UHGV virus genome: UHGV-0259249
DNA: 22,970 nucleotides
From: a virus
Reading direction: 5' to 3' (one strand)
Below are positions 755 through 4,015 of this stretch, piece by piece. Every line of letters starts with the position of its first letter. Position 1 is the stretch's first letter. The translations under genes and the position numbers were made by a program. The notes below the pieces were generated by a model. The model was not told the origin of the DNA, made no database searches, and worked only from the letters and a program-made list of their open reading frames with translations.

Positions 755-830
<76 letters not shown>

Positions 831-833
831 TAT

Positions 834-908
<75 letters not shown>

Positions 909-1274
909 GCAGAGGACGATGCTAGGCCGTTTCAGGCACTGACACATTATATGTGTGGGATGTTTTTAACCTAACTCCTTACCACATCCTGTTCTGTAAT
1001 GAATATTATTTATTACGGTACCAGTGCTGTTTTTTTACAATAGTGGAATGGTGCATTACTGGTGGAGATTTGTATTTCCTGGCAGGGCTGGTAATGTATC
1101 ATTCCGGTGTTGTAAATGACACCCCAGAGACGTTCCTCAGTGCGAGGGTGGTTGAAAGAGTCGGTTTTGCGGGAAACCACAGCATCCATGCAGGACTGGA
1201 TGTTTCGGGAGGCACCCGACGTCTCTGGTCATAATAAAATCATCGTTTTCTCTTCATGCCATTTTATGCCATAG

Positions 1275-1300
1275 ACCGCTACGCCAGGCGGTTTTTTTTT
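1275..1300 (+). terminator. intrinsic terminator
   Basis: Hairpin ACCGC(1275-1279)/GCGGT(1288-1292) with 8-nt loop, followed by a 9-T run ending at 1300. Confidence 0.5.
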
Positions 1301-1482
1301 ATTCAGAATTCAGTATTTATGCGGCTCGCTACGGCGGGCCTTTTTCATATCCGCGCCACGCCCGGCGAATATCAAAAACCACAGAGCCTTTCAGGGGTGA
1401 GCTTACGGGATGGTCAGTGTGACTTTCTCTGTGGGCTGGTCACCCCCGGGCGCAGGCTCACCCACTAAAAGGAAAAGTCACG

Positions 1483-1908
1483 ATGTTTGGTATTTTCAAA
1501 AAGAAAACCCGCAAGGCCATTACTGAAGTGAAGAAGATGGAGAACCGCGACGCAGTGGAGGCGACTGTCTGGGGCGCGTATTCCATAGCATTCGCCGACG
1601 GCACCTGTGATGCGAAAGAAATCGCTGTGCTGGAGAAAACCATTGCAGCACTTCCTGCTTTTGCGCCGTTCTCGGGTGAGATTGCACAAATGAGTGCAAA
1701 TATCCGCGCCCGTTATGAAGTGTCGCCGCGCTCTGCCAATGCTGAAGCCCTTCGCCAGCTGGCTGATGTTGCCGGTACTGATGATGCAGTTAATGTACTG
1801 TGCCTGTGTCTGGATATCGCAGACCAGGATGGCATTGGTCCGGATGAAGAAGCGCAGCTCAAGAAAATTGCTCAGGCGCTGCAGTTACCGCTGGAGCAGT
1901 ACCTGTGA
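1483..1908 (+). CDS. TerB-domain (tellurite-resistance TerB-like) protein, 141 aa
   Basis: ATG 1483 with AGGA 9 nt upstream. Two copies of the TerB signature: 'AFADGTCDAKEIAVLEKTIAA' and 'IADQDGIGPDEEAQLKKIAQAL' (hydrophobic-x-ADG/DG-x-x-x-E-E-x-x-hydrophobic). Length and start 'MFGIFKKK' parallel classical TerB 'MSFFDKVKG...'. Stop TGA 1906-1908. Confidence 0.75.
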   Translation: MFGIFKKKTRKAITEVKKMENRDAVEATVWGAYSIAFADGTCDAKEIAVLEKTIAALPAFAPFSGEIAQMSANIRARYEVSPRSANAEALRQLADVAGTDDAVNVLCLCLDIADQDGIGPDEEAQLKKIAQALQLPLEQYL

Positions 1909-2057
1909 AAAGTGCGCGCCTTGTGCTGGCTGCCATCCTGCTGTTTCTGGTAGTGGCGGTGGATTTCACCGGACGGCTGATGTCGGTGCTGGCAGATGGT
2001 GTGCTGGTGGCGATGGCGCTGGTCGTGCTCCGGCCTTTACTGCGTAAATCTGAATAA
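1905..2057 (+). CDS. small hydrophobic membrane peptide (50 aa), translationally coupled to the TerB-like gene
   Basis: GTG 1905 overlaps the upstream TGA (GTGA overlap); GGAG 8 nt upstream. Translation MKSARLVLAAILLFLVVAVDFTGRLMSVLADGVLVAMALVVLRPLLRKSE is almost entirely hydrophobic, consistent with one or two TM helices. Below the ORF-track length cutoff, so found by hand. Stop TAA 2055-2057. Confidence 0.4.
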   Translation: MKSARLVLAAILLFLVVAVDFTGRLMSVLADGVLVAMALVVLRPLLRKSE

Positions 2058-2066
2058 CACCACACA

Positions 2067-2104
2067 AAAGGCATCTGCGGGTGCCTTTAACGGGGTGTTT
2101 TTTA
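2067..2104 (+). terminator. possible terminator / structured spacer before the lysis cassette
   Basis: Hairpin AAAGGCA(2067-2073)/TGCCTTT(2082-2088), then GGGGTG and a T-run at 2098-2103. The T-run is not immediately adjacent to the stem, so efficiency is uncertain. Confidence 0.3.
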
Positions 2105-2146
2105 CGGGCCGCTGGTGGCCCTTTTTTATTTACAGGAGAAAAAAGT

Positions 2147-2539
2147 ATGTCTGAACCCTTATCCGGTTCCGGCACGGCTGCGGCGCTCGGTGGGGCGATG
2201 GTGTACGGGCTGTTTACCGGAACGGATTTCGGGATTGTGTTTGGTGCGTTCGCCGGGGCGTTATTTGTGGCAACGATGCCGCAGGCGCTTTCAGCCTGGC
2301 GTGTGGCGGCGCATTTTCTGGTGTCGTTCATTATCGGCGTGCTGGGCGCAGAGGTTCTGGCATCCTGGCTGGTAAAGCATACAGAGTTTGACGGTGCACC
2401 TGTCGACGCATTGTGTGCAGTACTGGTGTCAGTGGTGTCGGTGAAGATTCTCTCGTTCATCCACCAGCAGGATATTGCATCGCTGGTGTCCGGCCTGTTC
2501 TCCCGCCTGCGGGGTGGAGGAGGCGGCAATGTTAAGTAA
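2147..2539 (+). CDS. holin-like multi-TM membrane protein (130 aa)
   Basis: ATG 2147 preceded by AGGAGA. Gly/Ala-rich hydrophobic segments (GAMVYGLFTGTDFGIVFGAFAGALFVA; HFLVSFIIGVLGAEVLASWLV; LCAVLVSVVSV), charged C-terminus, placed immediately upstream of the endolysin. Family not identified with certainty. Confidence 0.55.
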   Translation: MSEPLSGSGTAAALGGAMVYGLFTGTDFGIVFGAFAGALFVATMPQALSAWRVAAHFLVSFIIGVLGAEVLASWLVKHTEFDGAPVDALCAVLVSVVSVKILSFIHQQDIASLVSGLFSRLRGGGGGNVK

Positions 2540-2807
2540 CATTCCCGGATTACTGAATGTGGCGTTATGCACGGTTATCGTGCTGACGCTCTTTTTTTAT
2601 CGTCGCCGTGATTCCAGACATAAACCGCTGATGTCATGGCTGGCCTGGCTACTGATGCTGCTTTATGCCTTTGCACCACTCAGCTATCTGTGTGGTCGCC
2701 CGTTAGCGGCGAACTGGCTGGCGGTGGGGCTTAATCTGCTGTTCTGCGTGTTGGTGATTCGCGCACGCGGGAACGTTTCAAAAATCTTTGTATTACGAAG
2801 GCGCTGA
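2529..2807 (+). CDS. second holin/antiholin-like membrane protein (92 aa, ~3 TM)
   Basis: ATG 2529 overlaps the end of the previous gene; GGAGG upstream. Three hydrophobic segments and an Arg-rich C-terminal tail (VLRRR). Stop TGA 2805-2807 lies 1 nt before the endolysin start. Confidence 0.5.
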   Translation: MLSNIPGLLNVALCTVIVLTLFFYRRRDSRHKPLMSWLAWLLMLLYAFAPLSYLCGRPLAANWLAVGLNLLFCVLVIRARGNVSKIFVLRRR

Positions 2808-2808
2808 T

Positions 2809-3354
2809 ATGAAGTCGAAAGATGAAATTTTTGACGAAGTTCTGGGAAAAGAGGGCGGTTACGTCAATCACCCGGATGATAAAGGCGGACCGACAAAATG
2901 GGGTATTACTGAAAAAGTTGCCCGTGCGCACGGATACCAGGGCGATATGCGTGATCTGACGCGCGGACAGGCGCTGGAAATACTCGAGGCGGACTACTGG
3001 TATGGACCACGTTTTGACCAGGTGGCAGCGTTATCCCCTGATATTGCCGCAGAGTTGTGTGATACGGGCGTGAACATGGGGCCAACCGTGGCGTCAAAAA
3101 TGCTTCAACGCTGGCTTAACGTTTTCAACCTGCGCGGGAAACTGTATCCGGATATGGATGCTGATGGACGCATCGGGCCGCGTACTCTTAATGCGCTACG
3201 GGCATATATGAAAAATCGTGGCAGGGATGGCGAACTGGTCTTACTAACCGCGCTGAACTGTACGCAGGGTGACCGTTATCTGGAGCTGGCAGAGAAACGC
3301 GAGGCCAACGAGTCGTTTGTCTATGGCTGGATGAAAGAACGCGTGGGAGTGTAG
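2809..3354 (+). CDS. endolysin: glycoside hydrolase family 108-type N-terminal domain plus PG_binding_3-type peptidoglycan-binding domain
   Basis: ATG 2809 (GAAGG 8 nt upstream; the track's 2788 start is TTG). 'EGGYVNHPDDKGGPTKWGIT' matches the GH108 catalytic signature; 'DADGRIGPRTLNALRAY' is typical of the associated PG-binding domain. Confidence 0.85.
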   Translation: MKSKDEIFDEVLGKEGGYVNHPDDKGGPTKWGITEKVARAHGYQGDMRDLTRGQALEILEADYWYGPRFDQVAALSPDIAAELCDTGVNMGPTVASKMLQRWLNVFNLRGKLYPDMDADGRIGPRTLNALRAYMKNRGRDGELVLLTALNCTQGDRYLELAEKREANESFVYGWMKERVGV

Positions 3355-3467: not shown

Positions 3468-3530
3468 CTGACCTTGGGTAAGGCAAAGTAGAACATGAGG
3501 AAGTATAAACCAATTCTGTTGAGGTTGACT

Positions 3531-3677
3531 ATGAAAAACGGCCTTGAATTGAAAGCGCCTGTAACTGATGACATCAGCAGAGCGGTGGCTTTTGCCATTA
3601 AGTGGGTGGCTGTCGGTATCGCTGTGTCTCCGATTCTGTATGGGATGGCAAAATTGATCATTGCTGTGAAATCGTAA
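3531..3677 (+). CDS. small membrane protein (48 aa; alternative start ATG 3495 gives 60 aa)
   Basis: GAGG 7 nt upstream of ATG 3531. Polar N-terminus then a single hydrophobic helix (AVAFAIKWVAVGIAVSPILYGMAKLIIAV). No family recognised. Confidence 0.35.
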   Translation: MKNGLELKAPVTDDISRAVAFAIKWVAVGIAVSPILYGMAKLIIAVKS

Positions 3678-3694
3678 GTGGTGCGGGGGTAAAT

Positions 3695-3829
3695 ATGTCA
3701 GATAGCATCATAAAACTAGCGAGGATTCTCTGTGTGGTTGTTGGCCTTTCATTTTCAGTGATGCTGGTTGCCATTTTCATTGCTACTGCCTGGAGAGTCT
3801 TGAGCTTATCTGGATTGATTGGTGGATAG
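3695..3829 (+). CDS. small membrane protein (44 aa)
   Basis: ATG 3695 with GGGGG upstream. Sequence MSDSIIKLARILCVVVGLSFSVMLVAIFIATAWRVLSLSGLIGG is one long hydrophobic helix. No family recognised. Confidence 0.35.
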   Translation: MSDSIIKLARILCVVVGLSFSVMLVAIFIATAWRVLSLSGLIGG

Positions 3830-3859
3830 CTGACATGAGCCGAAAACACTGGACACAGA

Positions 3860-4015
3860 GTGCCGCGAACGGCGGCGAAATGGGCACTGGTAGCGATACT
3901 GGTGCCTTTTTTTCTGGTGGGATGCGTCAGCCTGGATAAGGCGCGCCAGCTTTTCGATACAGCTTCTCAGGTCTGTGAAATTGTCGACGGTGTTCGGCAG
4001 TGTATGCAGAACTGA
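3860..4015 (+). CDS. small lipoprotein (51 aa precursor; lipobox LVGC)
   Basis: GTG 3860 start found by hand (not in track). MPRTAAKWALVAILVPFFLVG|C has a positively charged n-region, hydrophobic core and lipobox Cys; the ~29-aa mature part has two more Cys. Weak RBS; the overlapping ATG 3835 frame stops early. Confidence 0.4.
   Translation: MPRTAAKWALVAILVPFFLVGCVSLDKARQLFDTASQVCEIVDGVRQCMQN

Follow-up and report, generated by a model that had tools for sequence, protein, structure and literature searches.

We analysed the virus genome UHGV-0259249, a stretch of 22,970 nucleotides (nt; hereafter the window), with respect to two adjacent genes on its + strand, which we identify as tciA and tciB, a pair first named in phage P1. 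The first of these, tciA (1483-1908), begins with ATG and encodes a protein of 141 amino acids (aa) that belongs to the TerB family and is an orthologue of P1 TciA. The second, tciB (1905-2057), begins with GTG and encodes a hydrophobic 50-aa peptide of the DUF3927 family. The TGA stop of tciA and the GTG start of tciB overlap as GTGA, within CCTGTGAAA, and a GGAG lies 8 nt 5' of the GTG. A preliminary description of the locus had listed these two open reading frames (ORFs) with their overlap and had taken them to be translationally coupled; the coordinates, the overlap and the GGAG bear this out. Directly 5' of tciA, on the same strand, we found a conserved structured leader (1351-1485), delineated by conservation, RNAalifold and a covariance model. 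The pair itself has been described before, and in the leader we see a candidate for a new cis-regulatory RNA.

The TciA and TciB proteins as a unit

The assignment of TciA to the TerB family, along with the two TerB-type repeats proposed earlier, is upheld by several profile comparisons. The Pfam TerB profile PF05099, the search that the preliminary description had suggested, recovers TciA with 30.7 bits (gathering score 24.4; E=4.2e-7) over two matched stretches, and PHROG 632, labelled 'tellurite resistance', matches it from end to end (E=7e-64). A profile built from 10 phage TciA homologues recovers the solved Klebsiella TerB (PDB 2JXU) with E=4.8e-15, aligning positions 14-137 with chain residues 20-144, and a tblastn comparison finds TciA 84.4% identical to its counterpart in P1. 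Two acidic DG-x5-E motifs, D39-G40...E46 and D116-G117...E122, are (nearly) invariant in ten diverse phage homologues and, judging from these sequences, constitute the invariant core of the TciA family. The AlphaFold2 (AF2) model, with a predicted local distance difference test score (pLDDT) of 85.9, shows the basic N-terminus, MFGIFKKKTRK, as disordered, with six helices behind it, in keeping with the all-helical TerB-like fold. TciA is a full-length, all-helical member of the TerB family, cytoplasmic and with a basic disordered N-terminus. Among the NCBIfam models, TciA retrieves no more than a sub-threshold match to DjlA, and TciB retrieves none.

The hydrophobic character attributed to the 50-aa peptide is equally clear. 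TciB has a grand average of hydropathy (GRAVY) of +1.40 and two hydrophobic stretches (approximately residues 6-19 and 25-42) that are split by the sequence DFTGR, and both of its ends are basic. It matches Pfam DUF3927 with E=2e-14 and PHROG 1470, 'TciB-like inhibition of cell division or resistance to colicin', with E=2.5e-24, and a literature search for 'DUF3927' returned an incidental mention alone. A motif of the form VDF(T/S)-x4-S-x-L-A-D-G-x-L-V ... W-P-(L/I)-x-K is shared by the versions from P1, P7 and the lambdoid, N4-like, Erwinia and Pseudomonas phages. AF2 models a helix over residues 2-48 (pLDDT 92.5). TciB is a peptide of about 50 aa, predicted to reside in the inner membrane and translationally coupled to tciA.

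We collected loci with three TciA alleles and TciB as queries and scored all ORFs with hidden Markov models of both proteins; as the queries were single alleles, each set of loci is biased towards close relatives. TciB lies directly 3' of TciA in 80/80 and 80/80 of the TciA-seeded viral loci and in 79/80 of the TciB-seeded ones, where the one exception is cut by a contig end. The neighbourhood survey proposed in the preliminary description to see whether the pair co-occurs thus finds it in 239 of 240 viral loci. The same arrangement is seen in 13 of 14 closer genomic relatives. The apparent exceptions are a relative with a frameshifted tciB and a Paracoccus relative with a TciB-like 52-aa peptide, which is joined by a TGATG overlap. 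Coupled junctions, in the form of GTGA, TGATG, TAATG or gaps of 0-3 nt, occur in 8/9 phages with TciB, and the database protein P0051 is a natural TciA-TciB fusion. The pair is present in P1, P7, the small temperate phage LMessi and the Pseudomonas Nickievirus, and also in the lytic N4-like Salmonella phages UTK0002 and FSL SP-058 and in six records of 240-kb Erwinia jumbo phages. Co-occurrence on this scale greatly exceeds chance, and tciA and tciB are passed on together in temperate and strictly lytic phages alike.

Two loci show other partners beside a TerB gene. In the lytic, N4-like Vibrio phage BUCT194 (locus L010, 424-2677) a TerB gene, a gene for a TerC/Alx-family membrane protein and a second TerB gene stand in a row; BUCT194 has no TciB, and the ORF 3' of the second TerB gene is not TciB-like. 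Because this phage, lacking TciB, has TerC between its two TerB genes, TerC and TciB may be membrane partners that can stand in for one another. In Pseudomonas juntendi (locus L264, 3441-3644) a TciA homologue that is 50% identical to the JLK-2012 allele is followed, with a GTGA overlap, by a 67-aa protein that is not TciB and has a signal- or lipoprotein-like N-terminus.

The preliminary description did not recognise the pair as a described system, and in this respect it needs to be corrected. The P1 record lists tciA, tciB and tciC in a row, each named 'by homology', and the lambdoid phage JLK-2012 annotates TciA and TciB at the matching position, in the order Q, three tRNAs, tciA, tciB, other genes and holin S. 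The pair is tciA-tciB as first named in P1, catalogued as PHROG 632 and PHROG 1470 and annotated in RefSeq genomes of E. coli. For twenty years its catalogue name, given by homology, has ascribed three putative functions to it.

A conserved structured leader before tciA

The leader comprises approximately 130 nt and, by sequence comparison, is better conserved than tciA itself. Between JLK-2012 and the window the TciA alleles are 41% identical in protein, whereas the 165 nt upstream of them are 85% identical; the leaders before this 41%-identical allele show 80-86% nt identity to that of the window. In dozens of loci the leader block is 80-97% identical, and in an Erwinia jumbo phage it is 73% identical. 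Applied to 19 representatives, RNAalifold predicts 31 pairs; three elements belong to this fold and a fourth is an additional helix. The first is a 5' hairpin (1354-1357/1364-1367). In the second, an anti-Shine-Dalgarno (anti-SD) sequence CCUUU (1387-1391) pairs with the Shine-Dalgarno (SD) sequence AAAGG (1468-1472). The third, in which GGGUGAGC (1395-1402) pairs with GCUCACCC (1456-1463), forms one long helix together with the second, and an apical stem lies beyond. The fourth is a 7-bp helix formed by CACAGAG (1380-1386) and CUCUGUG (1427-1433), which crosses the long helix and would therefore be a pseudoknot or an alternative conformer.

A covariance model, R1, built from the alignment of the 19 representatives, gives 142.8 bits for the window, 59-77 bits for the six Erwinia jumbo phage records and 66-71 bits for a third lineage, which is of metagenomic origin. 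It also matches genomes with the JLK-2012 allele, and in 71/80 close viral loci the match ends exactly at the tciA ATG. In a scan of metagenomic and viral sequences 66 of 80 R1 matches are followed directly by an intact TciA ORF, and 12 more of the 80 by a tciA that is frameshifted by an extra A in an A-run. No R1 element was found in P1, P7 or the N4-like, Pseudomonas and Vibrio phages.

Covariation was assessed on 43 distinct metagenomic and viral sequences, in which 95.2% of the cells are paired and 17 pairs show double changes. None of 500 shuffles reaches the observed values, and sliding the partners by 1-3 columns reduces the paired fraction to 33-46%. The 7-bp helix reads CGUAGAG/CUCUACG in the Erwinia lineage and CAGAGAG/CUCUCUG in the third lineage, and it is always paired at 7/7 positions, so that three fully compensated variants exist; 4.7% of shuffled arms find such a partner. 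The CCUUU/AAAGG pairing is present in all sequences. Compensatory changes, a location in the 5' untranslated region (UTR) and the involvement of the ribosome-binding site, the marks of a cis-regulatory structured leader, are all found here. In this phage lineage a conserved and covarying leader of about 130 nt precedes the pair, and comparison of the sequences indicates that one of its helices pairs with the tciA SD.

Homopolymer runs vary at two places in these loci. In 12 metagenome contigs a JLK-type tciA has A7 in place of A6 after MFGIFGKK, resulting in a frameshift and an early stop behind an intact leader (the contigs include L412, L418, L433, L445, L447, L448, L450, L452, L464, L490 and L405). 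This allele could be a recurrent pseudogene, the product of a slippage-prone run or a shared assembly error. Likewise, a G-run directly after the anti-SD (window 1394-1397; also L077, L307 and L378) ranges from G4 to G11 among similar leaders and could be phase-variable or a homopolymer sequencing artefact.

The leader is not confined to tciA. Diverged copies that retain the hairpin, an A-rich spacer, the anti-SD helix, the SD and the ATG score 36-54 bits with R1 (L032:5098-5233, L077:4914-5049, L090:5787-5902, L075:5312-5426, L449:8233-8348 and L458:4459-4574). They precede other late-region genes 3' of the lysis cassette (231-aa protein; PHROGs 16910/17079/29765, families without an assigned function). 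In addition, truncated 5' parts of the leader are found beside unrelated genes, with differing break points. Since diverged copies precede other late genes and truncated 5' parts lie beside unrelated ones, the element has the appearance of a leader module that serves accessory genes in these phages, chiefly tciA.

With respect to described RNAs, Rfam 15 has no family, yybP-ykoY included, that matches 1340-1485 (E<=1 over 580-2200; E<=10 over 1300-1500), and the best matches in the leader region are chance matches of 13-17 bits to miRNA and sRNA models. No described RNA family in Rfam 15 thus accounts for the leader, and its sequence was not found in the searchable literature. A likeness to nut/boxA-boxB antitermination sites or to the prophage anti-sRNAs AgvB/AsxR was weighed as well, with no Rfam family matching in the leader region. 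The indels among relatives are not multiples of three, and on this ground a peptide-coding role of the block (ORF 1256-1468) was rejected. An RNA thermometer is unlikely, the predicted accessibility of the SD being flat from 20 to 45 C.

The phylogenetic and structural evidence can be read in two ways. In the first, 1351-1485 would belong to an undescribed phage cis-regulatory RNA family that gates tciA, the first gene of a regulated lytic-phase membrane module found in temperate and virulent phages alike. Such an RNA would begin with a hairpin and continue into a long helix that masks the SD, possibly with a pseudoknot, and its diverged versions would gate other late-region accessory genes, all in response to a signal of the infected cell. 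If the Mn2+ riboswitch of TerC-family genes is taken as a model, this signal could be an ion or metabolite, or alternatively the response could come from processing by RNase III. In the second reading the block would be no regulatory RNA at all and would instead represent a recombination joint, a mosaic boundary or a DNA-level site kept by module exchange. The truncated 5' parts with their differing break points fit such a joint, as does the observation that the downstream tciA allele is swapped while the flanks stay similar. Against it stand the compensatory changes that keep three helices across three lineages and the related but sequence-diverged leaders that preserve the architecture, including the anti-SD/SD pairing, before other genes; the indel lengths, being incompatible with coding, likewise count against it. 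We consider a joint or DNA-level site unlikely.

Several points nevertheless weigh against the regulatory RNA. In the thermodynamic ensemble the SD of the window is about 58% unpaired at 20-45 C, as a window-specific alternative pairing competes, and the case for SD occlusion is for this reason a purely comparative one. The fold of the leader is not more stable than that of shuffles (z=-1.5). The alignments were fitted to R1 and lean towards its structure, and the lineages are few. Furthermore, the leader is not intrinsic to the cassette, since the copies of the pair in P1, P7 and the N4-like and Pseudomonas phages are without it. Taking both sides together, we put forward the new cis-regulatory RNA family tentatively, with somewhat more doubt than confidence. 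If the leader is confirmed, it would be a new phage riboregulator and a starting point for asking what leads phages to express TerB-type proteins, and at which stage.

The surroundings of the pair as a cargo slot

Upstream of the pair, on the + strand like the terminator-like hairpins and the lysis cassette described below, lie genes for tRNA-Thr (755-830) and tRNA-Gly (834-908), which were detected by ARAGORN and by the Rfam tRNA model (73.8 and 65.6 bits). Downstream is the lysis cassette (2147-3354; Pfam, PHROGs), which consists of a Phage_holin_8 protein (2147-2539), a Phage_holin_3_7 protein (2529-2807) and a GH108 endolysin (2809-3354). This agrees with the placement of the pair between the phage tRNAs and the holin in the preliminary description. 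A terminator scan finds two intrinsic-terminator-like hairpins with T-runs (1273-1294 and 1323-1340, within 1273-1345) that end the upstream tRNA unit directly 5' of the tciA leader; in the alignment the second of these keeps its shape in relatives while its sequence differs. Between tciB and the first holin gene (2067-2130) the sequence and the terminator scan reveal a hairpin at 2067-2088 and a terminator-like hairpin with a T-run at 2106-2121. Further 3' in the window are the small and large terminase, the portal, a protease/head fusion and the tail sheath. Given this gene order of tRNAs, pair, holins, endolysin, terminases, portal, head and sheath, the window is the late region of a phiP27-like E. 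coli prophage.

The closest public DNA is 99.6% identical and comes from E. coli STEC306-308, where the genes are annotated as 'TerB family protein' and 'DUF3927 family protein', followed by a putative holin. The RefSeq gene order in E. coli STEC308 is Q antiterminator, ORF6N-domain protein, OB-fold protein, hypothetical protein, DNA methyltransferase, tRNA-Thr, tRNA-Gly, TerB family, DUF3927 family, holin, holin and GH108. The sequence is matched in 581/5426 complete E. coli genomes, so that the pair occurs in about one tenth of them, in addition to its occurrence in P1, lambdoid prophages, N4-like podophages and 240-kb jumbo phages.

The nature of the site is best illustrated by phiP27 (NC_003356; locus L515, 1687-4077, to be compared with window 755-2539). 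Here a methyltransferase, tRNA-Ile, tRNA-Arg, stxA2e and stxB2e are followed by a tciB remnant of 236 nt that is 87% identical to window 1963-2198, i.e. the 3' half of tciB and the spacer, and then by the same two holins and an endolysin. In phiP27 stx2e occupies the position that tciA and the 5' part of tciB hold in the window. As stx2e fills the same slot, the pair is exchangeable accessory cargo between tRNAs and lysis genes, and the earlier proposal of accessory cargo in the toxin or moron slot of lambdoid phages is borne out, with the tciB remnant still lying beside the toxin genes. tRNAs lie <=3 kb from tciA in 44/80 and 43/80 related viral loci (about 55%), and they are also near tciA in P1/P7, JLK-2012 and the Erwinia jumbo phages; the linkage is frequent, not obligate.

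Two neighbouring segments of the window deserve mention. A stretch of about 400 nt from tRNA-Gly to the leader's terminator (909-1317) is absent from JLK-2012, where the leader lies directly 3' of the tRNA. It contains a long hairpin (approximately 1029-1122), picked up by no more than sub-threshold miRNA-like Rfam matches, and the terminator at 1273-1294. On the other side, 3' of the endolysin (3495-4015), are three small overlapping ORFs of 60, 75 and 51 aa, which belong to PHROGs 1115, 4906 and 7528, families without an assigned function, and are all hypothetical in RefSeq; the 51-aa ORF, with its lipobox-like LVGC, is a possible spanin component.

Proposed role and relation to known systems

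A crude consensus scan detects no sigma-70-like promoter in the interval from the upstream terminator (1340) to the tciA start codon (1483), and the only + strand promoter-like sites lie near the tRNA genes, 5' of them (616-697) and at their junction (822-849). The pair is bracketed by terminator-like hairpins (1273-1294 and 1323-1340 upstream, 2106-2121 downstream), and in the closest annotated genome it lies 3' of the gene for the Q antiterminator. The P1 record places the pair in the ban operon, 3' of the C1 operator Oban, and this C1-repressed location implies that it should be off in lysogens. Transcripts of tciA/B/C have been reported in lytic infection by P1vir, and purified preparations of P1 virions contained TciA peptides (PMC9024508). 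The absence of a detected promoter, the flanking terminators, the position 3' of Q, the ban operon of P1, the P1vir transcripts and the occurrence in obligately lytic phages together point to expression during lytic growth and not to a gene kept on in lysogens.

We propose that the pair, having no promoter of its own, would be carried on a Q-antiterminated late transcript that reads through the flanking terminators, with the leader gating translation of tciA. TciB would then anchor or recruit TciA at the inner membrane, as has been reported of TerC for TerB; the TerC-TerB complex is described as a central unit tied to an inner-membrane stress response (PMC12054061, PMC8123226). By the same analogy, the TciA-TciB complex may act in lytic growth by buffering envelope, ion or proton-motive-force stress of the infected cell. 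Candidate stresses would be premature holin triggering, membrane-acting host defences, colicin-like pores and superinfection. The pair would be accessory and not essential: tciA, tciB and tciC were non-essential in a genome-wide CRISPR interference (CRISPRi) screen of P1 (PMC10695390), the tci operon has been lost from roughly half the members of one P1-like plasmid subgroup (PMC9603915), and stx2e has replaced the pair in phiP27.

An alternative, and the one towards which the preliminary description leaned, is that of a moron which benefits the lysogen and is expressed from the prophage, providing superinfection exclusion or abortive infection, colicin resistance, or resistance to tellurite and oxidative stress of the kind reported for ter operons. 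The homology to TerB suggests as much, given that ter operons are reported to confer phage inhibition and colicin resistance (PMC9603915, PMC4319500, PMC8123226), and a review speculates in this direction. The slot can hold stx2e, terminators bracket the pair as in a classical moron, and the pair is common in E. coli prophages. However, no promoter was detected 5' of the pair, the PADLOC-DB defence models contain no family that matches TciA or TciB at E<=1, and in P1 the pair is under C1 repression. Neither the window nor the related prophage loci contain terC, terD, terE or terZ, and TerA is likewise absent from the window; BUCT194 alone has a TerC. Both TerC and TerD-type proteins are reportedly required for tellurite resistance (PMC12054061, PMC8123226), and the co-located terC and terD/terE/terZ of a tellurite-resistance operon are thus missing. 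The pair has also been retained by N4-like and jumbo phages, which are obligately lytic and in which a benefit to the lysogen is impossible; authors of an N4-like phage genome considered the role of TciA in a lytic phage unexplained (PMC4319500). The abortive-infection, superinfection-exclusion or stress module of the preliminary description therefore finds no direct support, and we give little credence to a lysogen-benefit moron. The evidence favours a membrane-associated function in lytic growth over a defence or resistance moron of the lysogen, and it argues against the textbook label of the pair.

A lysis-timing role, in which the TciA-TciB membrane pair would modulate the adjacent holins in the manner of an antiholin or of lysis inhibition, appears quite improbable. 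It draws on the location of the pair directly 5' of two holin genes, here and in 55-56/80 close relatives, and on the likeness of TciB, a small membrane peptide, to many holin regulators. Yet the pair lies far from the lysis genes in P1/P7 and in the N4-like, Erwinia jumbo and Pseudomonas phages, and in JLK-2012 other genes intervene between it and S. TciB matches only DUF3927 and no holin family, the Phage_holin_8 and Phage_holin_3_7 matches belonging to the neighbouring ORFs, and P1 plates normally upon knock-down. Still more remote is a toxin-antidote or abortive module with TciB as a Hok/TisB-type toxic peptide restrained by co-translated TciA: gene order and tight coupling do resemble antitoxin-toxin pairs, co-occurrence is strict and TciB is a hydrophobic 50-aa peptide, but it has a specific motif (VDF...LADG...WP) beyond mere hydrophobicity, Pfam yields DUF3927 alone and no small-toxin family, the pair is present in lytic phages, and a frameshifted tciA with an apparently intact downstream region, found repeatedly (12 metagenome contigs), would kill the cell if TciA were an indispensable antidote.

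The proposal of a lytic-phase membrane module has its own weaknesses. Its physiological role is drawn entirely by analogy with the ter operons, and the interaction between TciA and TciB is putative. The topology of TciB is not settled, because AF2 predicts one continuous 47-residue helix whereas hydropathy suggests two short spans, as in a hairpin, joined by DFTGR. The promoter scan was a crude consensus search, and a weak or non-sigma-70 promoter may be active in lysogens. For the package as a whole, namely a P1-type cassette carried as late cargo, acting as a coupled unit, gated by its leader and buffering membrane stress in the lytic phase, our confidence is evenly divided between acceptance and doubt, almost all of the uncertainty residing in the physiological role. 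The inseparability of the two genes, their presence in obligately lytic phages and their lytic-growth contexts nonetheless yield a sharper testable hypothesis than 'tellurite resistance'.

Among known systems the closest is tciAB(C) of P1. TciA is a P1 orthologue at 84.4% identity, TciB belongs to the same family (PHROG 1470, DUF3927), the order and the coupling are shared, and in both phages a DNA methyltransferase and tRNA-Thr lie upstream. In contrast, P1 has tciC, and the window has no TciC-like ORF between 2057 and the holin at 2147. Further, the P1 pair lies in the early, C1-repressed ban operon beside the ban helicase, whereas that of the window lies in a Q-dependent late region beside holins and is preceded by a structured leader that P1 lacks. 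At the DNA level the window and P1 show no similarity outside tciA, apart from a tRNA-gene match of about 80 nt. The TerB of Klebsiella terZABCDE operons (PDB 2JXU; 153 aa, compared with 141 aa in TciA) shares the domain over nearly its full length, together with the two acidic DG-x5-E motifs and the helical fold. In the ter operons the partner of TerB is the multi-pass TerC, while in the window, where the TerB gene is phage-borne, it is a 50-aa peptide.

The leader resembles SD-sequestering leaders, such as translational riboswitches, RNA thermometers and RNase III-processed phage leaders, in being a structured 5' UTR with a helix that pairs with the SD. It differs from thermometers in its GC-rich helix and in an SD accessibility that barely changes between 20 and 45 C. 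Thematically nearest is the yybP-ykoY Mn2+ riboswitch of TerC-family genes, which is also situated directly 5' of a Ter-family gene but has no match to the leader in sequence or structure. Finally, stx2e of phiP27 shares with the window the backbone and the insertion slot, while the cargo is unrelated in sequence and function, so that the locus illustrates how cargo is exchanged at one defined position, with Shiga toxin 2e in phiP27 taking the place of tciA and the 5' part of tciB.

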